The notes beneath the pieces are model-generated. The model was not told the DNA's origin and searched no databases. It was given only the letters and a program-made list of their open reading frames with translations. Positions 11,547-45,653 of a stretch of 64,000 nucleotides of DNA are shown piece by piece. Position numbers and translations under genes: made by a program. Each line of letters begins with the position of its first letter. The first letter of the stretch is position 1. This stretch comes from an uncultured Gammaproteobacteria bacterium (GTDB taxonomy: Bacteria; Patescibacteriota; Microgenomatia; UBA8517). The DNA is taken from positions 17,640 to 81,639 of the forward strand of contig CAZRJH010000003.1 in the NCBI GenBank assembly GCA_964600575.1. The letters are read 5' to 3'.

Positions 11547-11586
11547 GTTTATTCTCTGCGGTTAGAAATCTCTGCTAAGATTACAT

Positions 11587-26536: not shown

Positions 26537-26575
26537 AGCCTTCCAATTTACGATTTAGATAAGTAGCCTATAATC

Positions 26576-26604
26576 TTGACATTTGATCAAAAATACTGTA
26601 TGAT
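26576..26604 (+). promoter_or_regulatory. Promoter TTGACA-17-TATGAT at the AT-rich left edge of the GC-rich island
   Basis: gccTATAATcTTGACAtttgatcaaaaatactgTATGAT; implies a ~190-nt leader before ATG 26799. Confidence 0.45.
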
Positions 26605-26798
26605 TCCCACTGGAGTTAGGTCTTTGTCCTTTTTGGGAATGTAAGCCCTAACTTTATTTTTGTTTGTACATTAACAAACCAAGAATATAAAAAAACAAGT
26701 TAAAAGGTTTTCTCCTTTTGGTGCCGACGAAAGAGACCAGCTCTGAAACATTAGAGATGGCATCTTTTAATCGGCATCAAGAAATATGGAAGGAGCCT

Positions 26799-28847
26799 AT
26801 GAAAGTTAACAACCGTTTGTTTTGGGTTCTTTTGGTGTTCGTCGGTGCGCTTACATTTGCTTCCATAGCATGTGGTTCCAGCGCTCCCGAGACTCCTCAA
26901 GGTCCCACTGTAACACCCGGTCCAATGCCCACACCTACGCTGCGTGCATACGTGCCACCCCCTGATGAAGGGCCAAAGTACGGAATTTCGCAGATATCTA
27001 CGGGTGCTGGAAACATTTCCAACGAGGTGATCGGTAGCCGCATGAACCAGAACGCTTTTACAATTGGTTTGGCGGTCGGATTGATCATTATCGCTATTGG
27101 AATCTGGTTTGTCCCCGCTAACTGGTGGTTAATTGCACTTCTTGTTGTTTCGTATGTTGGCGGAAATATCACCAACAACAGTATCCAAAGTGGGATACCG
27201 CAGAAACAATCCGAAGTTGCGCAGGTACTGCAAAATGACTCGATCACGAACGGCATGAGTTTCGCCGCCCGGGCTCAAGCTCAAAATAACCAGTATATTT
27301 ATGCAACCATCAAGCAAATCGGGATCGACAGCGTTCCTTGCCAAGGCGGAGATCACGGTTATCGCGATTTCTGTGGACAAAACACCCCCTACTACAATCA
27401 CTGGACCACAGACTACCCATGTGGTACTGATGAAGACGGGGACACAATCTACTGTGATGAAGATCACTACGAGAATTGGCTGGACCGCATCGACAAATAC
27501 TGGATCGTTTTGGACACCAAGGCTAAATACCTTGATGAACAGATCTATCATCAGAAATGCATGTCACCCGACGGTAAGACGGTTTCCGAATGTCATCGCG
27601 ATGAGTACGGTAAGATAGATGACAAAAGTAATCCGGTTTTCTACCTCCACGGCGACTGGCGTGCCCCTGAAGATGTAAACGCTCACAGACAGTCCAGTTC
27701 ATCGATCTTTGGCACAAGCTATGTTGATATGGGACAGGTGAATAACCGTGTACCCCTCGACTGGGCCAATGTCCGAGACAATAGCGTGTCCTGCAACGGA
27801 ACCGATTACTGCGGCAGCAACTTTGTTGCTACGGTGGTTGGTCCCTACCTTAACTACGGTTTTGCCTCTGGATCACAGCTTTTCGAACCGGTGACGAACC
27901 ACTACCAAAAGCTATTACAGCTGGCGGTTTTGCCAACTCCCCACGGCGCGGCTTTCCAAGAGAAAGATGCGTTCGGCAAAGACTCGGTTTTACAGACCAG
28001 TCTCTATGGAGTTGATGCCGACTTGCCACTTCACCTCGACCCTGTGGCTATCGTCGGATCTTGTATTTCTCAGGACAACATCGCCGGCTTCTCGGCTTAT
28101 GCGATGCAGTTCCAGGGGAGTTTCGGACCGATCAAGCAAGGAAGTGCGCGTTGGTATATTGTTTGCGACAGCATCGTTGCACAAATGAGTGGAATGCAAA
28201 ACACGGTTACAGCCATCAAGGCCTACGAACGTGATCCCAATGTGCACGGCAAGTTCTCTATGCCCAAAAATCTGGTCGACATTGTTATATCCGTAAGTGA
28301 GGATGGGCAGTGTATAACCGGACGCGGTATGGAAACCGGTATGCCTGCAGGCAACGACCAAGTCCAAATGGACATGCTCGAATCAATTCCTGGCGGCCAG
28401 TGTGTCCCGTTCACGAAAGAAAACGTGTTCGGTACATTTACCTCTGGCTATACGGGAACGACATCAACCCAAACCAATGCGAATGTCGCCGAAGGAAGCG
28501 TAAGTACTTCTACCATTCTGAGCTATCAGTACTCTGACATGACTCAGGCGGGCGGTACGATCGGCATCCTCTACGCGACAGACCCGAACTATGTGCCCCC
28601 CGATCCGTCGGCTCCGGGATGTGTAATTCCAAAGGCTGACCACAAGGGTTTTGTTCGATATGATCCTTGTAACTACTTCTACCAACAGTCGGATGTTCAA
28701 ATTAATCAGGACGGATACGACTTGATTATGCGGGATATTCAGACCAAGGCGGTCGATTATGTGGATGTAATCTGGGGTTGGGTTTGGCTCGTCTTGGCTG
28801 TGGTCATACTGATCTTATCAGCCGGCGGGAAACTGCAACTTTTCTAA
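26799..28847 (+). CDS. Large secreted/membrane protein (~682 aa) with Cys-rich ectodomain, N-terminal signal/lipobox-like sequence, TM hairpin and C-terminal TM anchor; GC-rich island gene 1
   Basis: SD GGAAGGAG 5 nt before ATG 26799; FASIACGSS signal; hydrophobic segments at ~aa 105-150 and the extreme C-terminus (WGWVWLVLAVVILIL); many Cys/Asp/His (DEDGDTIYCDEDHYENW); ~52% GC. Confidence 0.5.
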   Translation: MKVNNRLFWVLLVFVGALTFASIACGSSAPETPQGPTVTPGPMPTPTLRAYVPPPDEGPKYGISQISTGAGNISNEVIGSRMNQNAFTIGLAVGLIIIAIGIWFVPANWWLIALLVVSYVGGNITNNSIQSGIPQKQSEVAQVLQNDSITNGMSFAARAQAQNNQYIYATIKQIGIDSVPCQGGDHGYRDFCGQNTPYYNHWTTDYPCGTDEDGDTIYCDEDHYENWLDRIDKYWIVLDTKAKYLDEQIYHQKCMSPDGKTVSECHRDEYGKIDDKSNPVFYLHGDWRAPEDVNAHRQSSSSIFGTSYVDMGQVNNRVPLDWANVRDNSVSCNGTDYCGSNFVATVVGPYLNYGFASGSQLFEPVTNHYQKLLQLAVLPTPHGAAFQEKDAFGKDSVLQTSLYGVDADLPLHLDPVAIVGSCISQDNIAGFSAYAMQFQGSFGPIKQGSARWYIVCDSIVAQMSGMQNTVTAIKAYERDPNVHGKFSMPKNLVDIVISVSEDGQCITGRGMETGMPAGNDQVQMDMLESIPGGQCVPFTKENVFGTFTSGYTGTTSTQTNANVAEGSVSTSTILSYQYSDMTQAGGTIGILYATDPNYVPPDPSAPGCVIPKADHKGFVRYDPCNYFYQQSDVQINQDGYDLIMRDIQTKAVDYVDVIWGWVWLVLAVVILILSAGGKLQLF

Positions 28848-28867
28848 AAATTCATCAAGGAGAAAAT

Positions 28868-29791
28868 ATGAATCAGCTCAAAAAGCTTTTTCTTTTCTTT
28901 GCGGCGGCAACAATTTTGCTGTCCGCCTGCGCTCCATCGGCCCCATCGCCGGTGAATACTGTCCTTCCTGGTGTAGATCTCACAAAGAGTATCCAGGATT
29001 TCAATGCTTGGTACACCAAAACGGTCAACCAACAGGCTGATCTTCAGGTCAATGTACTCGCCTTTGACGGCGTGTACTCCAAGTATTACTCGACAATGAG
29101 TGCGCTGGTTGCCAACAACGCGAACTGCTACGTGAATGTCAAAAACACAGAGCAACCGCTTCTCGAGGCAACTTTTAACCCGAATCAAGATCAAGGCACG
29201 CTCATCAACGCGCTGGTCACCAACACCATTGGCGGCGAGCTGGCGACAAGTATTTGTGCCGAAGGTAACGAGAAAATTGCGAATTTCGTGATCAGCGGAC
29301 GCCAGGAAGTCTACGATGCCTACATCAAAATGCAGGAATCGGCAGTGTTCTTCGTTCGCGACCTGAACAACACCATTCCTGTCAAAGTCGGCAACGATTT
29401 CCTGCAGACCTATGGCGACCCGAACATTGCGGAGCAGAAAATGCGTGACGCCGGAATTCCCGGACTCACAGATTTTCAATTTCCTCCCAACGAGCAACTC
29501 TTCTATGTGATGCCCGGCAATAAGGAAATTTGTGATTACTACATCACAGGCGCATTCAAGCAATATCTGCCTCCTCCGATCTTGAACAAGTTCTATGGGC
29601 ACGACGAATCGCTTATGCGACGCTACGGCGCCCAGTGGACACCTCCACTCGGTGGGTCGAACGGATCTTGCAAGTTGTTCGCTCAGGCGGCGCTTGATCA
29701 AATCATGACCCCGATCATGAATCAAAATGCCTCCAACGCCATCAATACCGGCGTTGACAACGGCAATGAGATTCCGACGGTAACCCCATAG
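28868..29791 (+). CDS. Putative lipoprotein (~307 aa); island gene 2
   Basis: SD AAGGAGAAAA before ATG 28868; signal peptide ending LLSAC (lipobox); GC-rich codon usage. Confidence 0.5.
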   Translation: MNQLKKLFLFFAAATILLSACAPSAPSPVNTVLPGVDLTKSIQDFNAWYTKTVNQQADLQVNVLAFDGVYSKYYSTMSALVANNANCYVNVKNTEQPLLEATFNPNQDQGTLINALVTNTIGGELATSICAEGNEKIANFVISGRQEVYDAYIKMQESAVFFVRDLNNTIPVKVGNDFLQTYGDPNIAEQKMRDAGIPGLTDFQFPPNEQLFYVMPGNKEICDYYITGAFKQYLPPPILNKFYGHDESLMRRYGAQWTPPLGGSNGSCKLFAQAALDQIMTPIMNQNASNAINTGVDNGNEIPTVTP

Positions 29792-29807
29792 GTTAGGAGA
29801 GAATATC

Positions 29808-30494
29808 ATGAACCTTTTAACAATCGGATTTGCAGTGACCGGCCTTCTGGCCGCATTCTCGTTCATTGGCTCGAACCTCCGGGGAACTTTCCTGGAATCG
29901 GACGGTGACGGTTTGCAACCTTTGGGCTGGGGAGCGGTGTTTTACTTCCTGAGCTTTGCCGTGGCACCACTTGATGTGGCCGCCGGCTACTTGCTCAGTG
30001 GACTCGGAATGCTGTTTGTGGTCTACGGACTTTTTGTCCTCATTCCGGACCCGATCACCGACTTCCTTCTGCACCCTGTCGCAGGCATCGTCTACGCTTT
30101 GGTCGCCGCGGTTATTTTCCTTTCAACCCCGCATGCCATGGCATTGACAGCCGGATATGTTCTGCGCCTGACCCTGCCGACCTCCGCCGCCGCTATTCTG
30201 GCAACCTTCGCCGCCCTTTCGCTTACAACCTCGTCCTTCAAGGACAAGCTTGAACAGCAGGTTGGTGGTGTTGTTTTGCTTTTGGCTGGCATCGTGTTCG
30301 GCATCCTGGCACCCTTTGCAGGGACCGTTATTCTCGCAGTGACTGCGGCCGGGCTCGGCGGACTTCTGTTCGCATTGGGCTTATTGGTCGCCATTGACGA
30401 CGACACGGTCGAGCGTTTCTTGACCCCTGCGGGTCTTATCGCCTATTTGCCCCTTCTGGGATTGGCGGTATACATCGCTCGCATGCTGTTCTAA
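29808..30494 (+). CDS. Polytopic membrane protein (~7 TM, 228 aa); island gene 3
   Basis: SD AGGAGAG before ATG; Gly/Ala/Leu-rich hydrophobic helices throughout. Confidence 0.5.
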   Translation: MNLLTIGFAVTGLLAAFSFIGSNLRGTFLESDGDGLQPLGWGAVFYFLSFAVAPLDVAAGYLLSGLGMLFVVYGLFVLIPDPITDFLLHPVAGIVYALVAAVIFLSTPHAMALTAGYVLRLTLPTSAAAILATFAALSLTTSSFKDKLEQQVGGVVLLLAGIVFGILAPFAGTVILAVTAAGLGGLLFALGLLVAIDDDTVERFLTPAGLIAYLPLLGLAVYIARMLF

Positions 30495-30529
30495 CAAACA
30501 GCCCTCGCAAGTATATTCTTGGTTTTAAC

Positions 30530-30561
30530 GGGAGACCGACATCAAAAAATGTCGGTCTCCC
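30530..30561 (+). terminator. Perfect 13-bp-stem hairpin (gggagaccgacat-caaaaa-atgtcggtctccc); terminator or processing site inside the island operon
   Basis: Perfect inverted repeat; only a weak T tract follows (ctacttctttt). Confidence 0.35.
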
Positions 30562-30733
30562 TGCACTACTTCTTTTAACTTCTTAAAATTGACTTCAATA
30601 ATCTAAAAATATAAACTTCACGCGTTAGTTTTTTCCAATTTGTACATTTAAATATTTCAAAAGCACTTTTTGGAGACTTGAAAGATGGACCGACTTTTGG
30701 GTCGATCAGTCATAAAGTCTCCAAGGAGAAACA

Positions 30734-31327
30734 ATGAATTCCAACAAATGGTTCAATCTTGTTTGTCTGGTTGTAACGGTGATTGCCGTTATTGCGGCAT
30801 GTAGCCCCAACGATCAGGCAAGGCAACACGCAAATCAGGCGAACTTGGAATATGCACCGTACGCAATCCAAAACTTCATTGATCAGCGCAACTATAGTTG
30901 GCGTCTGGAAATGAGCGACGATCCGTCGACGATTTTGTGGTGTACGATTTTCCCAGTAACACCGGGTGTTAAGCCAATGACCCTTCCGATCACAGGCAAG
31001 CTCACCTCAAGCGGCAAGCGACCCTTCTCGGGTGATTCAACCTTGCAGGTTGATGATCAGGCTATGTATGGTAGTTCTACAGAATACCGCTACGGCTTTG
31101 GTCCTACAGGCAAAGCAGAGTATTACGATATTACGGGCATGGACACGCTTTGCACCACTCAGCCTTTGGTTTGGCAGTCGCAGTTGACTGTTTTGATTCA
31201 ATCCAAGGACAATACGCTCCTGGCTGCATCCCAACAGGCACATGACCTTTTGGTCCAAGGACGCGGCGCGGAAGCCCAAGCTGTATTGGATGCCGCAATG
31301 GCACAAGCACAAGGAGTTTTACCATGA
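30734..31327 (+). CDS. Putative lipoprotein (197 aa); island gene 4
   Basis: SD AAGGAGAAAC before ATG; signal peptide ending VIAAC (lipobox). Confidence 0.5.
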   Translation: MNSNKWFNLVCLVVTVIAVIAACSPNDQARQHANQANLEYAPYAIQNFIDQRNYSWRLEMSDDPSTILWCTIFPVTPGVKPMTLPITGKLTSSGKRPFSGDSTLQVDDQAMYGSSTEYRYGFGPTGKAEYYDITGMDTLCTTQPLVWQSQLTVLIQSKDNTLLAASQQAHDLLVQGRGAEAQAVLDAAMAQAQGVLP

Positions 31328-31743
31328 GCACCAAAAAGTTCATCCTCTATGCGATTCTCGTGATTTTTGCTTTCGCCGCGCTCGACCTGGCCCTCGGCTG
31401 GGGACTTCTGCCTTTTGAGAAGGCATCGGTCGCCAATGTGGAGAAGCAATTCACCTGGGGTTACGAGCAAATGGGAGCTTTGGAAACCACAGCCCGTTCG
31501 GTCTGTACGGCCCAAAAAGCCTACGACATGGAAACGGACAAGGATTACAAAGCACAGCGTCTCTCTCAGCTTACGGGTTATCAGTCCAACTATAACCGTT
31601 TGCAGGGTGAATACGATGCCTGGGCCGCCAATATCTTTACGGGTAAAGTAGTCCGGCCTTCGGATCTTCCCGAAAGGGCGCCCAACCTCGATCAGATGAT
31701 GGCCAAGCTTTGTCCGCCTTCAACTCCGACACCGGCTCCATAA
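31324..31743 (+). CDS. Small membrane-anchored protein (139 aa); island gene 5
   Basis: ATGA start/stop overlap with the upstream gene; N-terminal TM; C-terminal PSTPTPAP. Confidence 0.45.
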   Translation: MSTKKFILYAILVIFAFAALDLALGWGLLPFEKASVANVEKQFTWGYEQMGALETTARSVCTAQKAYDMETDKDYKAQRLSQLTGYQSNYNRLQGEYDAWAANIFTGKVVRPSDLPERAPNLDQMMAKLCPPSTPTPAP

Positions 31744-31782
31744 CCAAAATCGCGATTTCAAAAGCTTTTGAAGTTTAAAAAA

Positions 31783-31830
31783 AACGGGACCGGCGGTCTT
31801 TTGCTTTTAGCAGACAGACTTCCGGTCCCG
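31783..31830 (+). terminator. Long hairpin (cgggaccgg...ccggtcccg) with internal gaccggcggtc-TTTTGCTTTT; probable terminator of the island operon
   Basis: 9-bp outer inverted repeat enclosing a T-rich tract. Confidence 0.4.
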
Positions 31831-31842
31831 ATCTATTTCTCC

Positions 31843-31878
31843 ACAAAAAATCCCCGTCCATGAAATTCACGAACGGGG
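31843..31878 (-). terminator. Intrinsic terminator for the minus-strand small membrane-protein gene
   Basis: Minus strand reads ccccgt-tcgtgaatttcatgg-acgggg followed by ATTTTTTGTGG. Confidence 0.55.
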
Positions 31879-31892
31879 AAAAACCCGGAAAT

Positions 31893-32246
31893 TTAGTTGA
31901 ACATTGCGTCGTTGGCGTCTAAACCAAAGATTGTCGCAACTGCGACAACGATCGCCGGTGCTATGTAGGTTGCAAGGACAAAAAGCAGCAACGCCTCGAT
32001 TATCTGGCCTGTGATCCAGAGCACTGCACCAATTAGTCCCAGAATCCATATCGAGCTAAAGACATTGGCGAAATAAGCCATGATTCCTGCCCAAAATACC
32101 AGGCTAACCACATCAAGTGGTTCAGCTGGGAAAAAGGCGCTCAGAGCAATAAGAATCACAACCACTTTCATCAGTGTCGAGAGGTTTTTGAAGACTGCAA
32201 AAGGCCAATCATTCAAATTGTCGAACAGATCTGTCAACTGTGACAT
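31893..32246 (-). CDS. Small membrane protein (117 aa, 3-4 TM); island gene 6 on the opposite strand
   Basis: SD AAGGAGA 5 nt upstream of ATG on the minus strand; hydrophobic helices. Confidence 0.45.
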   Translation of the reverse strand: MSQLTDLFDNLNDWPFAVFKNLSTLMKVVVILIALSAFFPAEPLDVVSLVFWAGIMAYFANVFSSIWILGLIGAVLWITGQIIEALLLFVLATYIAPAIVVAVATIFGLDANDAMFN

Positions 32247-32334
32247 GTAGTCTCCTTAAGGTACAAACGGTTCGAGAGTGAATTTTAACACATTGTTACA
32301 CATTGCCCGTATTTTTGGGTTATACTTGGCATAT

Positions 32335-33417
32335 ATGCAGGAAATAAAACAAAAAATAGCCGAACTTTTGACTCGTTTGGCAGATCTTACCAACGCACTC
32401 AACATTCCCGAAAAAAAACAAAAAATTGACAACCTTACAGTTAAAGCGGCCGATCCGAATCTTTGGAACAATCAGGAAGAGGCAAGAAATGTTACTCAGG
32501 AACTTTCCGACCTAAAAAAGGAATTGGATGAAGTTTTGGAGCTTACACAAAACTTGGAAATAATTAAAGTTCTTTCAGAAGACTCGTCCGAAGAAGCAAG
32601 TTTACAATCCGAAGTCTCAAAGGCCGAAAAGTTTATGGAAAAGCTGGAGCTTAAGTCATTTTTGTCGGGAGAATACGACGGCAAAAATGCAATTCTTTCT
32701 ATACACGCGGGCCAGGGTGGGACCGAAGCAATGGATTGGTCGAATATGATTTATAGAATGTATACCCGTTTTTGTGAAATTAGGGATTGGAAAACACAAG
32801 TTTTGGAATATTCAGCAGGGGAAGAAGCGGGTATTAAAAGCGTAACAATAAAAGTAATAGGCCATTATGCTTACGGATATTTAAAAGGCGAGGCAGGTAC
32901 CCACAGGCTTGTTAGACAATCTCCTTTTAACGCGGACAAACTTCGTCAAACCTCTTTTGCACTGGTGGAGGTAATGCCCGAACTGTCCGATGTTGATCTT
33001 CGTGATATAGAAATCAAAGAAGACGATCTTGATTGGCAATTTATTCACGCAGGCGGACACGGAGGCCAAAACGTAAATAAAGTTGCAACTGCGGTTCGTT
33101 TAACTCATATTCCTTCGGGTATTGTTATAACTGCATCCACCGAAAGGTTTCAGGAACAAAACAGAAAGATTGCCTTGGACTTACTTCGCGGAAAACTTTG
33201 GCTTATGCAACAGGAAATTGCCAAAGGTCTCAAAAAAGAACTCAAAGGAGATTACAGGCCCGCATCCTGGGGAACTCAAATCAGAAGCTACGTACTTCAT
33301 CCTTATAAAATGGTTAAAGACTTAAGAACTGATGTAGAAACGGGTAATACCGAGGCTGTGTTGGATGGCGAGATAGATGAATTTATAGACGCCGAGCTAA
33401 AAAACACTTCCGCCTAA
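32335..33417 (+). CDS. prfB: Peptide chain release factor 2 (no programmed frameshift)
   Basis: SPF tripeptide (RF2-specific), GGQ motif (GGHGGQNVNK), RF PCRF domain; continuous ORF; ATG 32335 (MQEIKQK) preferred over the upstream track start at 32278. Confidence 0.85.
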   Translation: MQEIKQKIAELLTRLADLTNALNIPEKKQKIDNLTVKAADPNLWNNQEEARNVTQELSDLKKELDEVLELTQNLEIIKVLSEDSSEEASLQSEVSKAEKFMEKLELKSFLSGEYDGKNAILSIHAGQGGTEAMDWSNMIYRMYTRFCEIRDWKTQVLEYSAGEEAGIKSVTIKVIGHYAYGYLKGEAGTHRLVRQSPFNADKLRQTSFALVEVMPELSDVDLRDIEIKEDDLDWQFIHAGGHGGQNVNKVATAVRLTHIPSGIVITASTERFQEQNRKIALDLLRGKLWLMQQEIAKGLKKELKGDYRPASWGTQIRSYVLHPYKMVKDLRTDVETGNTEAVLDGEIDEFIDAELKNTSA

Positions 33418-33981: not shown

Positions 33982-34659
33982 ATGACTGAAGAAAAAAAAG
34001 AAATGGTCTTATTTAAAAACGTTACAAAACGTTTTGGTTCCGTTACAGCAGTTCACGATATAGATTTTCAGGTTAAAAAAGGCGAATTTGTTTTTCTCAC
34101 TGGTCCGTCAGGAGCAGGCAAAACTACAATTCTTAAAATGATTTTGGGTGAATATGCTCCCAGTAGCGGCCAAATTGTAGTAGACGGACAAAATGTCCAC
34201 AATCTTAAATCTTCCGAAATTCCACATTATCGTCAAAAAATAGGGACAGTTTTTCAGGATTTTAAAATTCTTCCCGAGCGAACGGTCGGGGAAAATGTGG
34301 AAGTTGCGCTTGCAGTTATTGGACTTCCCGAAAGCAGCTGGCAAGATCGGGTAATGCATGTTCTAAAACTCGTAGGGTTAGGTAAAAGCGTCAATATGTT
34401 TCCTTCCCAGCTTTCTGGCGGGGAACTTCAAAGAGTCTCTTTGGCAAGGGCACTTTCGGTTAATCCAAAACTTCTTTTGGCGGATGAGCCAACAGGGAAT
34501 CTAGACTGGGAAACTTCCGATAATATGATGGATTTATTCGAAAAAATTTGCGGAGAAGGAAAAACAATAATTATGGCTACTCACAACATGGAGATTGTCA
34601 AAAAGTATAAAAAACGGGTAATTCATATAGTTGGTGGTAATATAGATTCTAAATCCTGA
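33982..34659 (+). CDS. ftsE: Cell-division ABC transporter ATP-binding protein FtsE
   Basis: Walker A GPSGAGKTT, signature LSGGELQRV, Walker B LLLADEPTGNLD; 225 aa; followed immediately by ftsX. Confidence 0.9.
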   Translation: MTEEKKEMVLFKNVTKRFGSVTAVHDIDFQVKKGEFVFLTGPSGAGKTTILKMILGEYAPSSGQIVVDGQNVHNLKSSEIPHYRQKIGTVFQDFKILPERTVGENVEVALAVIGLPESSWQDRVMHVLKLVGLGKSVNMFPSQLSGGELQRVSLARALSVNPKLLLADEPTGNLDWETSDNMMDLFEKICGEGKTIIMATHNMEIVKKYKKRVIHIVGGNIDSKS

Positions 34660-34660
34660 C

Positions 34661-35578
34661 ATGGCAAATATTCACTTTAAAACAGCACTGGGATATGTAA
34701 GAAGATCACCGTTTCAGGCAATGGCTGCAATTTCGGTTTTAACCCTTACTTTTTTTGTGGCCACTTTGGTTTCGGTCCTAGTCTATTCGTCTTCAAAATT
34801 AATATCTTATTTCGAAACAAGGCCTCAAGTTATTGCTTTTCTTAAAAGTGATGCAAAAGAAGACGAGATAGCCTCTTTGCAACACAAACTCCAATCGGAC
34901 TCAAGAGTAAAAGAAGTTAAGTATGTGAGCAAAGAAGAAGCTCTATCTATTTACAAAACCGCAACCAGCGACAACCCGCTACTGGGGCAACTCGTAAGTC
35001 CCTCAATTTTTCCGGCATCTTTGGAGTTTTCGGTGGCGGACCTTAACTTTGCACAAAAAGTTATAGAAGAAGTAAAAAGCGAAAGTGTTGTTGATTCCGT
35101 CGGCTTTACCGCCGCTTTGGGCGGGGAAACAAGTCTTAAAGATGTTGTTTCCAGACTAAAAACTATTACTTCTTATGTAAAGATCGGGGGAATTTCCTTT
35201 GTCGGAATTCTCGGGCTAACGTCATTTGTCGTTCTTTTGATAATTATTAGCCTTAGGATGACGACACGGCGCGACGAGGTAGAAATATTAAATTTAATTG
35301 GTGCAACCAGCGGATTTATCAGAAGCCCGATTATTATAGAAGCAATTGTCTATGCCGGCTTGGGGGTATTTTTAGGTTGGGCAACAACCTTTATAGCAGT
35401 ACTTTATTTTGCCCCTTCGGCTGTAACATATTTTGGCGAAATTCCGGTATTACCAAAAGACGCTCTTGGAATATTCCAACTCTTTGGAATTATTCTCGCG
35501 GTAGAGCTTGCCGCAGGTTTTATGCTCGCTCTTTCAGGGAGTCTTCTTGCCGTTTCCAGAGTCAAGAAAGCAAAATGA
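34661..35578 (+). CDS. ftsX: Cell-division permease FtsX
   Basis: N-terminal TM, large extracytoplasmic loop, three C-terminal TM segments; 2-nt gap after ftsE. Confidence 0.85.
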   Translation: MANIHFKTALGYVRRSPFQAMAAISVLTLTFFVATLVSVLVYSSSKLISYFETRPQVIAFLKSDAKEDEIASLQHKLQSDSRVKEVKYVSKEEALSIYKTATSDNPLLGQLVSPSIFPASLEFSVADLNFAQKVIEEVKSESVVDSVGFTAALGGETSLKDVVSRLKTITSYVKIGGISFVGILGLTSFVVLLIIISLRMTTRRDEVEILNLIGATSGFIRSPIIIEAIVYAGLGVFLGWATTFIAVLYFAPSAVTYFGEIPVLPKDALGIFQLFGIILAVELAAGFMLALSGSLLAVSRVKKAK

Positions 35579-36759
35579 CATTAAAACTAAATGGAACAAA
35601 GATATTCATCTTTATACTCGGCCTAGTAATTTTTTTGGGCCTGGCTTCTTATTCAGTAATTTCGGCAGACGACTGTGACAACATCCCCGCCGACAAAGAC
35701 CACATAACTCAAAAGATTCAGTGTTTAACGGGAAAGATAGGCCAACTTAACTCGCAATCTATCACGCTTAAAAACCAGATCTCTCAGTTTGATGCTCAAA
35801 TAAAACTTACAACATTAAAAATTACGGACACGCAAAACAAAATCGAACTTCTAGGGGGAAGAATCGATCAACTAGAGGTTTCCATGAACGACTTGTCTAA
35901 AGCTTTTTCGGGAAGAGCTATCGAAACATATAAAATGTCCAGATTTGCCGAAAGTGTAATGTTTATAATGACTGCGAACGATTTAACCCGTGCTGTCTCA
36001 AGGTATCATTATCTCCAAAAAATTCAGGAAGCCGACAGAAGCTTACTTACAAGACTTCAAGAAACGCAAACAATGTATCAAGGCCAAAAGACAGATCAGG
36101 AGAGTCTGCAAAAACAACTCAAAGATCAACAAACAAATCTTAATTCACAAAAGGTTGCTAAAGCCAGGCTCCTTAAAGACACTCAAAATAGTGAAGTTAA
36201 ATATCAACAGCTTTTAGCCGAGGCAAAAGCCGAGTACGAGGCTATTCAGGGAATTCTTGCAGGCAAAGGAAAAGAAACAGAGGTGGGTAAGGTGAGTGCA
36301 GGTGAAAAAATTGCAAGCATTATTCAAGGCCCTTCTTGTAACTCGGGGGGAACACATTTGCACTTTACCGTTAGCCAGGGCGGGGTTACTCAAAATCCTT
36401 TTAATTACCTTAAAGGCGGAATCGAATATTCAAACTGTTCGGGGTCGAGTTGTGGTTCGAGCGACGGAGATAGTTTTAATCCAAGCGGCTCATGGGATTG
36501 GCCTATAAACGCTAAAATCCAGTTTAACCAAGGTTACGGTTCCACCTGGGCAACCAGAAACACCTATGTAGGAAGAATCTATAGCGCCCATAACGGTATA
36601 GACATCAATAGTTCCTCTCCTGATGTAAAATCCGTCAAAGGGGGGACTCTGTTTAGGGGTAGTTATGTAGGGGGCGGCGGGTGCTCGCTTAGATATGTTA
36701 GAGTTAGGAACGACGACGGCTTGGACCAATTCTATCTCCATGTAAATTACGTTTTATAA
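35575..36759 (+). CDS. EnvC-like coiled-coil protein with M23 (LytM) metallopeptidase domain whose motif order appears permuted
   Basis: ATGA overlap with the ftsX stop; N-terminal TM; ~230 aa Gln/Leu-rich coiled coil; GTHLHFTV (HxH block) lies about 85 aa before AHNGIDI (HxxxD block). Confidence 0.65.
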   Translation: MTLKLNGTKIFIFILGLVIFLGLASYSVISADDCDNIPADKDHITQKIQCLTGKIGQLNSQSITLKNQISQFDAQIKLTTLKITDTQNKIELLGGRIDQLEVSMNDLSKAFSGRAIETYKMSRFAESVMFIMTANDLTRAVSRYHYLQKIQEADRSLLTRLQETQTMYQGQKTDQESLQKQLKDQQTNLNSQKVAKARLLKDTQNSEVKYQQLLAEAKAEYEAIQGILAGKGKETEVGKVSAGEKIASIIQGPSCNSGGTHLHFTVSQGGVTQNPFNYLKGGIEYSNCSGSSCGSSDGDSFNPSGSWDWPINAKIQFNQGYGSTWATRNTYVGRIYSAHNGIDINSSSPDVKSVKGGTLFRGSYVGGGGCSLRYVRVRNDDGLDQFYLHVNYVL

Positions 36760-36793
36760 TTGCTTAAAACATATTTTGTTTTAATATGACTAT

Positions 36794-37585
36794 ATGAATT
36801 TTTTAAAATTTGTCAGGCTTCTACTTGTTACTGCGGTTTTGTTTGCAACAGTCGGTACAAATGTGATTCAGGCCGGTCTTGTTATAAACGAAATTTCCCC
36901 GTCAACCAATCCCGAATGGGTAGAAATTTTTAACGATAGCGGTAGCGAAGTTAATTTGGCGGGTTATCTCTTGGAAGACGGAAACAATATCACAATCGAT
37001 GATATTATTCTTTACGGATTAATTCCTGCCCATGGTTTTTTGGTGTTTACTCATGCGGAGGGCTGGTTAAATAACGACGGAGACACATTAAAATTTTATA
37101 ATAATGCCACACCCTCGGCTATTTTAGACCAATATTCTTTCGGAAGTCTCGACTCATCAAAGACTTTTGCCAAGATCCCCAACGGCGGGCCTTGGCAGAC
37201 AACATCAAATATTACAAATGGTTCATCAAACCCCACACCAACACCTGCCCCAACACCGACTCCTACTCCAACAATCTTTCCGACAACTACACCTTCACCG
37301 ACTCCTTCAAAATCTCCAACACCGACCCCTGTTAAAACAAAATCACCGACACCAAGCCCTACTCTGGAATCGCAGGTATTGTCTGCAGAAACTACTTCTT
37401 CGCCTTCTGCTCCTCAAACAGACACATCTATCGAAGTTCAAGATTCGGTAAACGATATGGATAAAAAACAGTCAAATCCCAGGAAAAATGTTATGGTAGT
37501 AGCCCTTACTCTAATGGGTTTTGGTTCCGTATTGTTTGGGGTTGGCGGTGTTGCGATATATCGAAAGTCAAAACAACCAAGTTAG
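36794..37585 (+). CDS. Lamin-tail-domain (LTD) surface protein with Pro/Thr-rich linker and C-terminal TM anchor
   Basis: LVINEISPSTNPEWVEIFN and GYLLEDG match the LTD core; PTPTPAPTPTPTPT linker; C-terminal VMVVALTLMGFGSVLFGVGGVAIY. Confidence 0.65.
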   Translation: MNFLKFVRLLLVTAVLFATVGTNVIQAGLVINEISPSTNPEWVEIFNDSGSEVNLAGYLLEDGNNITIDDIILYGLIPAHGFLVFTHAEGWLNNDGDTLKFYNNATPSAILDQYSFGSLDSSKTFAKIPNGGPWQTTSNITNGSSNPTPTPAPTPTPTPTIFPTTTPSPTPSKSPTPTPVKTKSPTPSPTLESQVLSAETTSSPSAPQTDTSIEVQDSVNDMDKKQSNPRKNVMVVALTLMGFGSVLFGVGGVAIYRKSKQPS

Positions 37586-37604
37586 GCTTTGGTATAATTT
37601 GTTA

Positions 37605-38027
37605 GTGAAAGATCAAATATTTAAAAAAGTTTATCTTTGGGCGCCACCTCTGCTTTGGATGCTTTTAATCTTCAAGTTTTCATCAGGAAGTGTTCCAACG
37701 GCTTCGGCTGTTTATTGGCAGGATTTTGCGGTTAAAAAGACGGGTCATGTTTTGCTTTTCGGCGGCCTTGCAGTTTTGTATTACAGAGCGTTGATAGGAG
37801 AAGGAATTAGTAAAAAAAGTGCCGTAATTTCGGCCATTATTGCTTCAACTATTTATGGAGCAAGCGATGAGCTTCACCAAACTTTTACCCAAGGACGAGA
37901 AGCCAAGATTAGAGATGTTTTTATAGACGGGGCCGGTGCAACCCTTTTTGGCTATCTAACCTATTTTGTATTGCCAAGATTGCCCAAAAAAATTAAAATG
38001 TTGGGCGAGAGATTCGGATTTATTTAA
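37605..38027 (+). CDS. VanZ-family membrane protein
   Basis: ASDELHQTFTQGREAKIRDVFIDGAG matches the VanZ-like core; start assigned to GTG 37605 after the upstream stop (the track ORF begins at 37521 inside the previous gene). Confidence 0.55.
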   Translation: MKDQIFKKVYLWAPPLLWMLLIFKFSSGSVPTASAVYWQDFAVKKTGHVLLFGGLAVLYYRALIGEGISKKSAVISAIIASTIYGASDELHQTFTQGREAKIRDVFIDGAGATLFGYLTYFVLPRLPKKIKMLGERFGFI

Positions 38028-38029
38028 AT

Positions 38030-39019
38030 ATGAAAAAAATTTTAGTCACAGGCGGCGCAGGTTATATCGGAAGTTTCATGGTTCGTGCTTTGGAAAACAA
38101 AGGCTACAATGTAACAATAGTCGACGATCTATCTTCGGGTCATAGGCATGCGGTTAAGGATTTTCGTTTAGAACAAATAAACTTATTAACTCAAAAAGAT
38201 TTACTAAACGACCTTTTTGCAAAGGAAAAATTCGACGGTGTAATACATATGGCCGCGTTTATCCAAATGGGAGAATCTTTTGTTAATCCGTCTAAGTATT
38301 ACCGTAATAATGTCATGGGATTTTTAAATCTTATGGACTCCATGAGAGATAACGGTTGCACAAATATAATTATTTCTTCTAGTGCGGGCGTTTACGGTAA
38401 TCCTCAAAGATTGCCGATAGAAGAAGACGATCCAAAAAACCCGCTTAATCCGTACGGGGAAACAAAGTATATGATGGAAAGAATTTGCGAAGACTACGAA
38501 GCTGCACACGGCATTAAATTTGTAAGTTTAAGATATTTTAACGCTTCGGGCGCTGCTCTTGACGGCTCTATAGGAGAGGCTCATCCGGAAGAAAGCCATT
38601 TAATACCTAATGTTATTTCCTCAGTTTTATCGGATAAAGAATTTACACTCTTTGGTGATGACTACCAAACACCCGACGGTACCTGCATAAGGGATTATGT
38701 GCATGTACTCGACCTTTCAGACTCACATGTTTTGGCTTTGGAATCCATACTAGGAGGGGGTAAAAGTGATTATTACAATATCGGCTTGGGTAAGGGTTAT
38801 TCCAATAAAGAAGTAATATCTCAAATAGAAGAAGTCTCGGGCAAAAAAGTTAGGTTAAAGATAATGCCAAAAAGACCCGGCGATGCAAACGCTTTATATG
38901 CAAAAATAGATAAAATAAAAAACGCACTGGGCTGGTCACCTAAATACGGAATAAAAGAAATTATAGAGTCTGCTTACAAATGGCACTTGCAAAACAAAAA
39001 CGGATATTCCTCCATTTGA
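38030..39019 (+). CDS. galE: UDP-glucose 4-epimerase
   Basis: VTGGAGYIGS Rossmann motif, YGETKYMMER (YxxxK), 329 aa. Confidence 0.85.
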   Translation: MKKILVTGGAGYIGSFMVRALENKGYNVTIVDDLSSGHRHAVKDFRLEQINLLTQKDLLNDLFAKEKFDGVIHMAAFIQMGESFVNPSKYYRNNVMGFLNLMDSMRDNGCTNIIISSSAGVYGNPQRLPIEEDDPKNPLNPYGETKYMMERICEDYEAAHGIKFVSLRYFNASGAALDGSIGEAHPEESHLIPNVISSVLSDKEFTLFGDDYQTPDGTCIRDYVHVLDLSDSHVLALESILGGGKSDYYNIGLGKGYSNKEVISQIEEVSGKKVRLKIMPKRPGDANALYAKIDKIKNALGWSPKYGIKEIIESAYKWHLQNKNGYSSI

Positions 39020-39050
39020 TTCCGACAGCTTCAGAGTTTAATATGAGTTA

Positions 39051-40049
39051 ATGAAACTATTGGAAAGAATAGCACATCTTTTTTTTCCGCGTGAATCTAA
39101 TAATCAAAAAGCAAAACTATTGCATCCAATAGGATTGGGTGTGTTGGCAACTTTAGTTATTGCTTTCCAAGTCGTTCTTAATTTTGTCCCTAAAACTTTT
39201 CCACAAGTTTTAGGTTACGCCGCAAACATCATTCCTTTCGATATCGTAAAACTGACAAACGAAAAACGTGCCCAAAACGGAATGCATGCTTTGGTTCTTG
39301 ATTCCACACTTTCCGCGGCGGCAATCGCAAAAGGAAACGATATGTTAGCAAAAGGTTATTGGGCTCACTTTGCACCGGACGGAACTTCGCCATGGAGCTT
39401 CTTTTTAAGTTTTGGTTATAAGTATAAATATGCCGGTGAAAATCTGGCGCGGGATTTTGCATCCTCTCAGGCGGCTATGGATGCTTGGATGAATAGCCCT
39501 TCTCACAAGGACAATATCCTTAACGACAGTTACAACGACATAGGTATTGGGGTAGTAGAAGGAAAGTTAAATGGTGTAGATACAACCATTATTGTCCAGT
39601 TTTTTGGAACAAAAATGCAAACGGAACCCAGTGTTGCCGCCGCACAGTTTTCCTCGGTTTTATCAACCCCAACCCCGTCAACCCTATTGGATGTAGCTAA
39701 AGAAAAATCACAAGAAGCCGCACTCCCCATCACTATAGAAACACCCGAGCCTACGCCTAGCCCAACCCCCGAATCCACTCCCACCCCGGAACCAACATTT
39801 ATTCCCGTAGCCATTGCTTCAACCGATCAAGTAACATCTTCTTCTTCGGGGAAACTGTCGCCATTTCTAACTACTAAAAATATCGCAATAGCTGTTGTTG
39901 CGGTTCTGCTTTTGGTGCTGGCAATCGACATAATAGTTATCAGACAAAAGCGAATAAATAGAGTCGGCGGTAGAACTTTGGCACACCTCGGTTTTTTTGG
40001 AATGATTTTCGCAGTTATAATTATTCTTAAAGCCGGAAAGATTATTTAA
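39051..40049 (+). CDS. CAP/SCP (PR-1-like) domain protein with N-terminal TM, Pro/Thr/Glu-rich linker and C-terminal TM
   Basis: KGYWAHFAPDG...GENLA...SPSHKDNIL..NDIGIGV is typical of the bacterial CAP domain. Confidence 0.7.
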   Translation: MKLLERIAHLFFPRESNNQKAKLLHPIGLGVLATLVIAFQVVLNFVPKTFPQVLGYAANIIPFDIVKLTNEKRAQNGMHALVLDSTLSAAAIAKGNDMLAKGYWAHFAPDGTSPWSFFLSFGYKYKYAGENLARDFASSQAAMDAWMNSPSHKDNILNDSYNDIGIGVVEGKLNGVDTTIIVQFFGTKMQTEPSVAAAQFSSVLSTPTPSTLLDVAKEKSQEAALPITIETPEPTPSPTPESTPTPEPTFIPVAIASTDQVTSSSSGKLSPFLTTKNIAIAVVAVLLLVLAIDIIVIRQKRINRVGGRTLAHLGFFGMIFAVIIILKAGKII

Positions 40050-40050
40050 T

Positions 40051-40311
40051 ATGAAAAAATTTGCAAAACATCTGCCGCACTTTCTGCTTTTAGCAGGTAT
40101 ACTTTTCGCTGGATTTGCAGGGTTAATTTTGTTTTCTCATAATTCAAAGTTTCAAGGGGCGGTCGCACTTGCAACGGCTTCGGCTTATGTGGCTTGGGGA
40201 ATTATGCATCATTATCTTCATAAAGATCTGCATTGGGAGGTCTTTGTAGAGTACGTGGCCGTGGCTGCACTCGGCCTTGCGATTCTTTTTTCCTTGATTT
40301 TGGGACAATAA
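40051..40311 (+). CDS. Small membrane protein (86 aa, 2-3 TM)
   Basis: Hydrophobic helices; tight spacing within the operon. Confidence 0.4.
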   Translation: MKKFAKHLPHFLLLAGILFAGFAGLILFSHNSKFQGAVALATASAYVAWGIMHHYLHKDLHWEVFVEYVAVAALGLAILFSLILGQ

Positions 40312-40329
40312 CAAAATATACTTTCAGTT

Positions 40330-41262
40330 ATGCTTTCAGGCACAAATATGTCGTCAGGCACGAATTTAAAAAAGGTCAGAAAGGCCGTAATTCCGGCAGC
40401 AGGGTTTGGAACAAGATTTCTTCCTCAAACCAAGGCAATGCCTAAAGAAATGCTTCCTATAGTAGATAAACCTGTAATTCAATATGTTGTAGAAGAGCTG
40501 GTGGAAGCGGGTATTCAAGACATTTTTATTGTTACAGGCTACCACAAGCGAGGAATAGAAGACCATTTTGATTCACCCAATCTGGATCTTATAGAAAATC
40601 TCAAAATGGGCGGGGAAAAGAAAAAACCGCTTTTGGAAGAAGTAGAAAAAATCTCCAATATGGCAAACTTCGTCTATGTTAGACAAAAAGGCCCCTACGG
40701 CAACGGTACGCCTCTTTTGAATGTCAGACATCTAATCGGGGACGAGCCCTTTATCTACACATGGAGCGACGACTTTATAAAAGCCGAACCCAACAGGTTC
40801 AAACAGCTTATTTCCGCCTATGAAAAATACGGAGCAAGTTGTTTGGCAAGTCTTAAAGCAACCAAAGACGAAGACTACGAACGCTACGGAAACTCAGGTG
40901 GAACTTTTTTGGAAGACGGAATAATGGATGTAGACAACATTATAGAAAAACCCGGTAAAGATAAAGCACTTTCGGATTTGGTTAATGTTTCCGGTTATCT
41001 ATTTACTCCCGACATTTTTAATTATCTAGATACCGCACTTAAAAATCTCAAACAGGGTGACGAACTTTACTACAACGATGCGCTCAAGTTAATGCTCGAA
41101 GATGGTAAAAAAGTAATGGCTGTAGAGATTAAAAACGGAAAATACTACGATACGGGTAACAAGATGGAGTATCTTAAGACGGTGGTTGAGTTTGCTTTGG
41201 CTCGCCCGGATATAAACGGCAAGTTTAGGGATTATCTCAAAAGCCTCAATTTAGACGGGTAA
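40330..41262 (+). CDS. galU: UTP-glucose-1-phosphate uridylyltransferase
   Basis: KAVIPAAGFGTRFLPQTKAMPKEMLPIVDKPVIQY is the GalU signature. Confidence 0.85.
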   Translation: MLSGTNMSSGTNLKKVRKAVIPAAGFGTRFLPQTKAMPKEMLPIVDKPVIQYVVEELVEAGIQDIFIVTGYHKRGIEDHFDSPNLDLIENLKMGGEKKKPLLEEVEKISNMANFVYVRQKGPYGNGTPLLNVRHLIGDEPFIYTWSDDFIKAEPNRFKQLISAYEKYGASCLASLKATKDEDYERYGNSGGTFLEDGIMDVDNIIEKPGKDKALSDLVNVSGYLFTPDIFNYLDTALKNLKQGDELYYNDALKLMLEDGKKVMAVEIKNGKYYDTGNKMEYLKTVVEFALARPDINGKFRDYLKSLNLDG

Positions 41263-41271
41263 TTATTCAAT

Positions 41272-43197: not shown

Positions 43198-43198
43198 T

Positions 43199-43786
43199 AT
43201 GATGCGTTTCGACCCCGATAAGCATATTAAAAAAACTTCAATTCCGGGCGTCGTGTTAATCGAACGTCCTATTTTGGGCGATGCAAGGGGTTTTTTACAC
43301 GAGCCATACAACAGGGAAGAACTAAAAGCTGCAACAGGGGTGGAGTTTAATCCTGTCCAGTGGACTCACGCCTACATAAAACCGGGGGTTGTAAAAGCGG
43401 TGCATTCAGAAAACTGGAATAAGTTAATATACCCCGTTACGGGTGTTTTATATGCGCCCATTGTTGACTTGCGCCCCGAAAGCGAAACTTTCGGTAAAGT
43501 TGAATATATAACTATAGATAACACAAAAGAGGATTCTCCTAGGCATGCTCTGTTTTTACCCGCAGGCGGCATCGGTAATTCAATTACCGTTTTAGGCAAC
43601 GAAATGATGCATTATTTTTATCTGATAGATGAATATTGGGATGATGCAAAAGCAAGTGGTGTGGCATGGGACGACCCAGATCTAAATATAAAGTGGCCGA
43701 TAGAAAATCCAATTCTCTCCGAACGAGATAAAACCAACCCCACCTTAAGGCAGATGTTCCCTCATAAGTTTAAAAACCAAAAATGA
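43199..43786 (+). CDS. rfbC: dTDP-4-dehydrorhamnose 3,5-epimerase
   Basis: RmlC cupin blocks GDARGFLHE, HSENWNKLIYPVTG, FLPAGGIGNSI. Confidence 0.85.
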   Translation: MMRFDPDKHIKKTSIPGVVLIERPILGDARGFLHEPYNREELKAATGVEFNPVQWTHAYIKPGVVKAVHSENWNKLIYPVTGVLYAPIVDLRPESETFGKVEYITIDNTKEDSPRHALFLPAGGIGNSITVLGNEMMHYFYLIDEYWDDAKASGVAWDDPDLNIKWPIENPILSERDKTNPTLRQMFPHKFKNQK

Positions 43787-44688: not shown

Positions 44689-44987
44689 TCCGAAGGTCTT
44701 AACCCGAATATTAGCTGGGCCCTCTGGCTCAGAAAGTTCAAACTAGCCTCTCGTATTGCAAAATCTTTAGAAGTTTCCTGGAGAAGTTTAGCCCCTACAA
44801 TGTCTCCGTTAGAGTTTTTCCCTACCGCTATGTGGTACATTCTTGATTCCGCATCTGCAGGTATTAGATCAGGAAATCCAAATGCCTGGGCCAAAAGGCG
44901 ATTCCAGTCTTCAACTTCTGCCTGAACAACCACTTTATTTCCGGGTATCATTTCGGGAACGGGAACACTATAACAAGTCTCTTTCAT
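44670..44987 (-). CDS. Hypothetical small protein (105 aa) downstream of trmD
   Basis: ORF only; not ribosomal protein L19 by sequence. Confidence 0.3.
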   Translation of the reverse strand: MKETCYSVPVPEMIPGNKVVVQAEVEDWNRLLAQAFGFPDLIPADAESRMYHIAVGKNSNGDIVGAKLLQETSKDFAIREASLNFLSQRAQLIFGLRPSDYSLDD

Positions 44988-44999
44988 GGATGAGGGATA

Positions 45000-45629: not shown

Positions 45630-45653
45630 ACGGGTATTGTATCATTTGTTGAA

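Follow-up and report, generated by a model that had tools for sequence, protein, structure and literature searches.

A GC-rich envelope-protein island in a Woesebacteria-type genome: candidate copy of a lineage-wide gene slot exchanged between lineages

Why a low-GC bacterial genome should carry a block of GC-rich genes, each led by a Shine-Dalgarno (SD) site and each predicted to encode an envelope protein, is the question raised by the 64,000-nucleotide stretch of contig CAZRJH010000003.1 analysed here (the window, or W). The block, referred to as the island, holds six genes, BIG, P2, P3, P4, P5 and P6. With about an even chance of being correct, it is the W copy of a lineage-wide, replacement-type hypervariable slot for envelope proteins that is exchanged horizontally among Woesebacteria-type genomes of the Candidate Phyla Radiation (CPR). 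On the best reading, the slot is fed by a phage-linked gene pool. Every genome examined has SD-led cassettes of predicted envelope proteins with a high G+C content at third codon positions (GC3) at this slot, and the genomes differ in which cassette or allele they carry. New protein families are found in it, along with a gene pair derived from phages and a distinctive regulatory design.

The G+C content per kb is 0.49-0.52 at 27-32 kb against 0.35-0.45 in the remaining window. At a resolution of 200 nt the GC-rich part has its edges at about 26.75 and 32.25 kb and is split by an AT-rich internal spacer at 30.5-30.73 kb. The six island genes have a GC3 of 0.51-0.64, compared with 0.367 +/- 0.038 (maximum 0.473) for 55 backbone genes, an excess of z = 3.8-7.3 (Mann-Whitney p = 3e-5), and tetranucleotide deviations above the mean plus two standard deviations are confined to segments overlapping the island. 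All 6 island genes, but only 1 of the 55 backbone genes, have a strong SD (AGGAG, GGAGG or GGAGA) ahead of them (Fisher p = 1.3e-7), whereas a TAnnnT box 3-16 nt ahead of the start codon is found in 32/55 backbone genes and 0/6 island genes. Because of these two frequencies the backbone genome appears to rely largely on leaderless mRNAs. An earlier, sequence-only reading of this DNA had described the island as GC-rich, shifted to G/C at third positions and SD-led among mostly leaderless or SD-less genes, and all three descriptions hold on computation, the sliding G+C and tetranucleotide profiles being far from uniform. A full-text literature search returned no paper tying leaderless translation to Patescibacteria. 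TATAAT-like boxes near start codons occur throughout the window, for example at 8673, 18283, 24186, 26081, 45000 and 54913.

The island consists of two cassettes. Cassette A is formed by BIG (26799..28847, + strand), a lipoprotein-like membrane protein of 682 aa with 15 Cys, P2 (28868..29791, +), a 307-aa lipoprotein with the lipobox LSAC, and P3 (29808..30494, +), a Cys-free protein of 228 aa with about seven transmembrane (TM) segments by hydropathy. It is always accompanied by the divergent P6 (31893..32246, -), which encodes 117 aa with 3-4 TM segments and is SD-led and GC3-rich. Cassette B holds P4 (30734..31327, +), a 197-aa lipoprotein of a phage-borne family with the lipobox IAAC, and P5 (31324..31743, +), which encodes 139 aa with one N-terminal TM anchor and two invariant Cys; the two genes are translationally coupled by an ATGA overlap. 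All six products are predicted lipoproteins or membrane proteins, and the predicted topologies agree with the earlier description of an island encoding secreted or membrane proteins exclusively. That description needed correcting in three respects. The start of P2 was moved to 28868. The count of two lipobox lipoproteins is right for P2 and P4 and is probably one short, as BIG has a lipobox-like Cys25 that is invariant among six close homologues. What had been taken for one self-contained module is in fact two transcription units, each with a predicted promoter and terminator of its own, accompanied by a divergent gene that is inherited vertically.

The same arrangement was found in related genomes. 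BIG has only six homologues among 5.8e9 proteins, and P3, which evolves very fast, has only two matches there, itself and one close relative. The homologue contigs, drawn from NCBI, JGI, ENA and Logan assemblies and included among the compared loci and contigs L001-L024, share one gene order: TGT, LytR_C and a membrane protein of 150 aa (TM150) come first, followed by BIG, a lipoprotein (about 305 aa), a polytopic protein (about 232 aa) and, on the opposite strand, a protein of about 116 aa, and finally by PrfB, FtsE and FtsX. Three further close loci and a distant relative (L012) came from scanning species-representative genomes; among the former is a locus of Candidatus Woesebacteria GW2011_GWB1_39_10, and the lineage is therefore assigned to the Woesebacteria. 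BIG-type cassettes lie between TM150 and prfB in W, L001, L002, L006, L009, L011 and L015, and one side only of the slot is visible in L003 and L010. In all loci the cassettes have a GC3 of about 0.42-0.70 and AGGAG-type SDs, against leaderless flanks with a GC3 of about 0.35. A profile search of 1.84e9 representative sequences gave only 70 BIG relatives, and the placed distant relative P0023 (about 20% identity) occupies the same slot with the same anomaly.

The contents of the slot vary both by allele and by gene. BIG alleles are 20-66% identical across slots. P4 and P5 are the sole occupants in L022 and L023, where BIG is absent, and an unrelated SD-led protein of 322-324 aa is present in the slot of L003 and L006. 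P2 follows BIG in every locus, and its homology still spans the entire protein in L015, the most distant cassette (23% identity, E 3e-5), so that the two are regarded as an obligate pair. P3 is found in every close cassette but not in L015. P6 occurs in the eight loci that have BIG and span the slot, and is absent where P4/P5 alone fill it.

Additional occupants of the slot in relatives fit an insertion and recombination hotspot: an IS200-type Y1 transposase in L003 (6822-7463), with a 213-aa open reading frame (ORF) at the matching place in L011 (14464-15105), an IS4-type DDE transposase in L007 (4745-6238), a YafQ-like toxin gene in L008 (88-366), and a small ribbon-helix-helix antitoxin-like gene in L010 (9148-9507), judged by eye from its N-terminal sequence. 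More small SD-led genes are located just before BIG, after P6 and after prfB (L006 7163-7489, 12237-13205 and 14414-14830 on the - strand; L003 413-739 and 5705-6679); they are GC3-rich in L006, and the variable zone may be wider than the core slot. Three of the compared contigs (L009, L010, L012) are labelled 'uncultured Gammaproteobacteria' or 'Pseudomonadales', yet they are syntenic with the window at 70-75% DNA identity, and the labels look wrong.

Exchange at the slot is most evident in L009, the closest relative of the window, with flanking proteins 73-92% identical to those of W (PrfB 92%). Between W and L009 the identities are 45% for BIG, 31% for P2, 55% for P3 and 78% for P6. Between L009 and L010/L011 they are 79% for BIG, 82-83% for P2, 39-41% for P3 and 31% for P6 (L011), against flanks of 51-75%. 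The L011-like DNA tract in L009 extends over 9960-12774 and spans BIG and P2. To judge from these identities, the BIG and P2 alleles of L009 were clearly swapped together, incongruently with their flanks. P6 shows a different behaviour: its identity between W and L009 matches the level of the flanks, and by this pattern P6 is inherited vertically with the backbone.

These features resemble those of replacement flexible genomic islands, an established category in aquatic prokaryotes that encodes exposed structures and changes hands through homologous recombination (Lopez-Perez et al. 2014, PMC4033161). Shared with them are the fixed location, the divergent or non-homologous gene sets of equivalent predicted role, the atypical composition, and exchange by homologous recombination via conserved flanks without integrase or att sites. 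The incongruence of island and flanks that is expected of homologous recombination was seen in W vs L009 and in L009 vs L010/L011, and different genes or divergent alleles were found at one location; exposure at the envelope is predicted from the lipoboxes, the TM segments and the conserved ectodomain Cys. The islands described in that study hold mostly glycosyltransferase and polysaccharide genes, are usually GC-poor and vary among strains of one species (PMC4033161). The cargo in W, in contrast, is a predicted protein complex, GC-rich and SD-led in a leaderless genome, compared across deeply diverged lineages, and every cassette comes with a leader and a repeat bracket of its own.

A link to phages comes from cassette B. 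P4 has 32 homologues, and tblastn matches to P4 were obtained in the Caulobacter phages CcrBL9 and BL47 and in five Gordonia phages (E 1e-16 to 8e-30). In CcrBL9 the P4 homologue gp405 is followed by gp406, a P5 homologue (38% identity, E 4e-23), and in the Gordonia phage Bantam the P4 homologue gp76 is followed two genes later by gp74, a P5 homologue (26% identity, E 2e-10). Across the loci and phage-like contigs compared P5 comes directly after P4 every time, the spacing in Bantam being as given above. The pair is also present in L016, which is phage-like, with many small co-oriented ORFs, PHROG families and phage-type glycosyltransferases and with phage genes that use SDs, and in L024, a 118-kb phage-like contig that also encodes an RNA ligase and an HNH endonuclease. 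In the bacterial slot, P4/P5 are present in W and absent from its closest relative, L009.

Phages are known to carry superinfection-exclusion lipoproteins such as Llp of T5 and Ltp of TP-J34. P4/P5 resemble these morons in being a small lipoprotein with an anchored partner, located outside recognisable structural or lysis genes in Bantam and CcrBL9, and in occurring also as an isolated pair in bacterial chromosomes; they differ in having no homology to any described exclusion protein. A spanin-like role of the pair is possible. A LemA-like identity of P5 was considered because of a YN..Y[ND]..F motif and of the usual pairing of LemA and TPM genes; it was rejected, as a search of the PDB with the P5-family profile gave no LemA chain and the Pfam LemA profile matched none of six members at E <= 10.

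BIG, the largest product, comprises an N-terminal signal, a TM hairpin at about residues 85-131, an ectodomain of about 520 aa and a C-terminal TM segment. Its structure was modelled with AlphaFold2 on a 58-sequence alignment; a 6-sequence alignment gave a pLDDT of 43 and was unusable. Fold matches of the model include TLP18.3 (3pw9, score 9.9), BA41 (5anp, 9.0), the TPM domain of Rhodothermus marinus (7tbr, 8.8), Psb32 (8c7i, 8.7) and a mycobacterial supercomplex subunit (6adq_J, 8.0), and the alpha/beta fold of TPM proteins is recognisable in the model. The Pfam TPM profile (PF04536) did not match BIG at E <= 1 or any of 58 family members at E <= 0.01, and for this reason BIG is said to carry a TPM-like fold in its model and not to be a member of the TPM family. 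The TPM-like part probably corresponds to residues ~415-560, since the distant relatives all align there. Searches of viral models with Foldseek (BFVD) gave a protein of Agrobacterium phage Atu_ph07 (E 2e-11) and a myovirus 'TPM domain-containing protein' (E 6e-8). No PDB structure matches the whole of BIG, and hits to flavivirus E proteins are noise; a fusexin or class II fusion protein was considered and rejected, as the three-domain, beta-rich fusion fold is not seen. Sequence searches of the PDB with the BIG family, P2, P4 and the P5 family gave nothing. Scans of the six proteins against Pfam, PHROGs, NCBIfam and PADLOC were without significant result and revealed no recognisable enzyme family. 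The earlier statement that the island encodes no enzyme stands to that extent, with the qualification that BIG has a TPM-like fold, and homology to housekeeping families, which would have spoken against an unusual module, was not encountered in the same four collections.

Members of the TPM family were at one time described as phosphatases of weak activity. The known proteins of the family serve outside the cytoplasm as accessory subunits that dock on membrane complexes (PMC13456599; bioRxiv 10.1101/2024.10.28.620569, 10.1101/2025.05.08.652833), and some genuine members lack a metal, nucleotide or phosphatase site (PMC13456599). This accessory role supports, without proving, a complex of BIG with P2, P3 and P6. 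Compared with the family (PF04536: TLP18.3, Psb32, MOLO-1; mycobacterial AscF), BIG is about four times larger, without a match to PF04536 at the sequence level. It is set apart further by an insertion rich in Cys and beta structure, by its TM hairpin and C-terminal TM segment, and by a probable lipid anchor. A perfect 14-nt string, ACCACTTGATGTGG, is common to P3 (29966-29979, +) and P6 (32108-32121, inverted) and encodes PLDV beside a TM segment in both; paralogy of the two genes was considered on this ground and rejected, as BLASTP finds no wider homology.

If the island is a copy of an exchanged slot, the following course may be pictured. The proteins would be exported by Sec, with BIG, P2 and P4 lipidated, and would assemble into a surface-exposed membrane complex in which the TPM-like ectodomain of BIG docks on the partner lipoprotein and the polytopic proteins. 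Such a complex could be the target, or a blocker, of contact with phages or host cells, and this contact would drive the replacement of alleles. P4/P5, as a phage-type pair, might act like a superinfection-exclusion moron. The foreign composition and the SDs would mark membership of a mobile, phage-linked pool, or else a locus-specific force such as GC-biased gene conversion, and translation of BIG may be gated by the opening of a hairpin that sequesters its SD.

Several observations weigh against an exchanged, phage-fed slot. Classic replacement islands are usually variable within species and typically GC-poor (PMC4033161), and here deeply diverged lineages are compared and the island is GC-rich. 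No island protein falls in a Pfam, NCBIfam, PHROG or PADLOC family. BIG was not found by sequence in IMG/VR (pattern search and tblastn) or in 50,697 phage genomes (tblastn). P4/P5 have fully taken on the composition of their phage carriers (GC3 about 0.9 in the GC-rich phages, 0.38-0.42 in L024), and none of the carriers seen has a G+C content of about 50-55%. In several pairs BIG identity follows the flanks: 66% in W-L001 against 69% for TGT and 74% in L003-L006 against 75% for PrfB, the cassette identities of W-L002 likewise tracking the flanks. Much of the history of BIG is therefore vertical, and as far as these identities can tell, vertical descent and occasional replacement both operate at the slot. 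Finally, backbone genes with an SD are not GC3-rich (0.39 vs 0.36, p = 0.14).

The most probable rival explanation, though on balance unlikely, is a vertically inherited, fast-evolving, lineage-specific envelope complex whose composition is held by a local force, either GC-biased gene conversion or selection on mRNA structure or translation. Besides BIG, the identities of P2 and P6 follow the flanks in W-L001, W-L002 and L003-L006, P6 is backbone-like in W-L009 as well, and the promoter and leader upstream of BIG are conserved with the backbone. The composition itself speaks for a sustained force. Identity at 4-fold sites between lineages is near random (0.27-0.31 observed against 0.25-0.26 expected; for BIG, 0.31 vs 0.26 in W-L001 and 0.28 vs 0.25 in W-L002), and that of flanking genes is similarly close to the random expectation. 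The GC3 anomaly is nonetheless seen in all lineages, and the G+C content of 4-fold sites (GC4) stays high in most cassettes. With 4-fold sites near saturation, the GC3 excess cannot be what is left, still unameliorated, of a single ancient transfer, and is either actively maintained or repeatedly re-imported. As P4/P5 match the composition of their carriers on phages and are not GC-shifted there, the excess is a property of the Woesebacteria slot and not of the genes. Against purely vertical descent stand the BIG and P2 alleles of L009, the absence of BIG from the slot in L022 and L023, and the presence of P4/P5 in W but not in L009. The idea that SD-led genes form a general GC3-rich class was rejected on the backbone comparison given above, and selection linked to SD use is accordingly an unlikely cause of the composition. 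The remaining candidates would be recurrent import from an unseen GC-richer vector or GC-biased gene conversion at a recombination hotspot.

The regulatory design of the island is distinctive. A region of 262 nt 5' of BIG is conserved together with the backbone. It contains a predicted sigma-70-type promoter, TTGACA-17-TATGAT (26576..26604, +), the best regional match (11/12), whose TTGAC and TAnnAT elements align in W, L001, L002, L006, L009, L010, L011 and L015 and are also present in L022 and L023. Between this promoter and the cassette, a terminator-like hairpin (GTTAGG...CCCTAAC with a T-run; 26615..26664, +) was read from the sequence, and relatives have differing hairpin sequences followed by T-runs at the equivalent position; it could act as an attenuator, represent a small RNA about 55 nt long, or terminate TM150. 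A conserved box, TGTACATTAACAA, and the left arm of a repeat occupy 26665..26689 (+), and a conserved GTACATTAACAA box is found in the region upstream of BIG.

The structured 5' leader of BIG (26705..26798, +) is predicted to fold into a three-tier hairpin, at the base of which the anti-SD UUUUCUCC pairs with the SD GGAAGGAG (26788-26795). Its minimum free energy is -42.6 kcal/mol (z = -7.1), and 0/200 shuffled sequences fold as well. The fold recurs in eight distinct sequences, with compensatory changes in 9/24 pairs of the RNAalifold consensus, and a covariance model found exactly one copy per locus, always 5' of BIG, and no further copies. Rfam has no family that reaches the gathering threshold, nor one at E <= 1 on the leader.

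The left arm, AAACCAAGAATATA (26676-26689), forms a perfect 14-nt inverted repeat around cassette A with the right arm, TATATTCTTGGTTT (30512..30525, +), which is located 18 nt past the stop codon of P3 and just ahead of a terminator hairpin, GGGAGACCGACA-loop-TGTCGGTCTCCC with a T-rich tail (30530..30575, +), read from the sequence; relatives have hairpins after the right arm at the equivalent position. The inverted-repeat arrangement is also present in L001, L002, L003, L006, L007, L009, L010, L011 and L015, and the arms co-vary between genomes (ACCAAGAAT, CTTCAAGAAT, CTTCAAGGA, ATCAGAGAAT). In nine BIG cassettes the perfect arms are 12-15 nt long, against a mean of about 6 (maximum 11) in shuffles and a maximum of 9 in 26 control genes; significance was judged by this longest-perfect-match test, RNAduplex energies not being a useful statistic. 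Cassette B is organised similarly. Its promoter-like site and leader (30589..30664, +) have promoter matches and a degenerate GTACATT box, a weak 18-nt left arm (30647-30664, +) is 78% complementary to 31764-31781, and a right arm with a palindrome is followed by a terminator hairpin (31764..31838, +). Slots with P4/P5 only have clearer arms, of 12 nt in L022 and 10 nt in L023. P6 has its own intrinsic terminator (31851..31879, -), a 13-bp stem with a T-run that is conserved in L009.

For the role of the repeats two readings remain, a duplex between the 5' and 3' ends of the mRNA and a site of DNA inversion or recombination. Pairing of 5' and 3' untranslated regions is known from bacterial mRNAs, namely icaR (PMC3868564) and hbs (PMC5737220). 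As in these, the complementary arms in W frame the genes of one predicted transcript: one arm precedes the first gene, the other comes shortly ahead of the terminator, and both are placed between the predicted promoter and the predicted terminator. Unlike them, the W duplex would span a three-gene mRNA of 3.8 kb, the transcript being predicted, and it does not itself cover the SD, while the icaR pairing also involves the SD region. The one resolved swap, in L009, does not use the arms as breakpoints, which counts against a role in recombination.

A bolder account would make these devices part of a dedicated cassette system for surface variation, with self-contained transcription units, each made up of promoter, leader, SD-led genes and terminator and bracketed by a co-varying inverted repeat, that are installed in one slot and kept distinct in composition and translation from the leaderless host genome. 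The repeats and the GTACATTAACAA box would be the handles of an undescribed mechanism of exchange, inversion or RNA processing, and BIG/P2/P3/P6 the main variable contact surface for phages or an episymbiont host. We regard it as improbable.

Invertible DNA is known from the G segment of phage Mu with its invertase Gin, from invertons and from shufflons, and a phase-variable segment of this kind, flipped by a distant invertase so that the cassette lies off the conserved promoter or behind P6, was considered as well; the inverted junction in W would then read ...CATTAACAAACCAAGAATATA joined to CTTGCGAGGGCTGTTTG. As in Mu G and invertons, short inverted repeats flank genes of a surface or host-range type and the promoter lies outside the segment. 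In nine loci repeats of 12-15 nt flank cassette A at conserved places, with weaker ones around P4/P5, and the two arms are identical within a genome and different between genomes, as expected if recombination homogenises them. Unlike in the known systems, no invertase lies within 10-16 kb, the far end lacks an alternative gene set, and one orientation was observed in every cassette instance examined. With both arms between promoter and terminator, a role at the RNA level fits equally well, and inversion is considered very unlikely.

Equally doubtful is the interpretation of the whole island as a decayed prophage or a phage-derived superinfection-exclusion block. P4/P5 are phage genes, BIG has structural relatives in phage proteomes, and all island genes are SD-led, like the phage genes of L016. 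Against this stand the lack of structural, replication and integration genes, of att sites and of PHROG matches for the six proteins, the lack of a sequence match for BIG, P2 and P3 in the 50,697 phage genomes or IMG/VR, and the syntenic and partly vertical history of the BIG family. Pfam tables for the neighbourhoods of W and its relatives list no integrase or recombinase within about 10-16 kb of the slot, and the search for recombination signatures found no tRNA or tmRNA and no direct repeats at the island borders. The absence of integrase, tRNA and direct repeats that had been noted by eye is thus borne out, recombinases having been checked within about 11-16 kb.

The same absences, of att repeats too, argue against a foreign island that was acquired recently and in a single event from a donor of higher GC. 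The strong contrast in composition and SD use would suit such an event, and the phage-borne P4/P5, missing from the closest relative, may be a comparatively recent gain of that sub-region. The slot and the BIG family are, however, shared by lineages with housekeeping proteins 55-80% identical and synonymous sites near saturation, so that for cassette A the explanation is already contradicted; overall it is highly unlikely. Horizontal acquisition as the sequence-only reading saw it survives in another form: BIG/P2 are incongruent with the flanks and P4/P5 are phage-borne, but in a lineage-wide slot and not as one recent arrival. The contig chimera proposed as its alternative, a GC-rich fragment mis-joined into a low-GC genome, has the compositional step itself in its favour and is dismissed with near certainty, as the same gene order with both flanks of the same backbone recurs in independent NCBI, JGI, ENA and Logan assemblies and the leader ahead of BIG shares the conservation of the backbone. 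Chimera and single recent transfer alike are ruled out by the recurrence of SD-led cassettes of high GC3 at this location in independent assemblies of related genomes.

CPR bacteria such as Woesebacteria are tiny, uncultured groundwater organisms presumed to need contact with other cells, and to our knowledge almost nothing is known of their surface proteins and gene regulation. A rare, structurally modellable family of surface complexes that is exchanged between lineages would be a candidate for what decides susceptibility to phages or the recognition of partners. The coexistence of SD-led and leaderless translation in one genome, with a persisting GC3 excess, allows amelioration to be tested against recurrent import or GC-biased conversion. 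Two conserved non-coding devices, the SD-sequestering leader and the cassette-bracketing inverted repeat, are available for direct testing, and the widespread P4/P5 pair of cultured, experimentally tractable Gordonia and Caulobacter phages gains a bacterial context.

Downstream of the slot, prfB (32338-33417, +) is a single uninterrupted ORF, so that the programmed +1 frameshift common in other bacteria seems absent; relatives have products of 359-361 aa with PCRF and RF-1 domains. The neighbourhood of the slot includes genes for FtsEX, a PcsB-like protein, VanZ, lamin-tail-domain (LTD) and CAP proteins, rhamnose synthesis and glycosyltransferases. In the window, envelope-biogenesis genes occupy 33982-47000, with FtsE, FtsX, the PcsB-like, lamin-tail-domain and CAP-domain proteins, rhamnose synthesis (40330-44688) and a GT2-GtrA glycosyltransferase.

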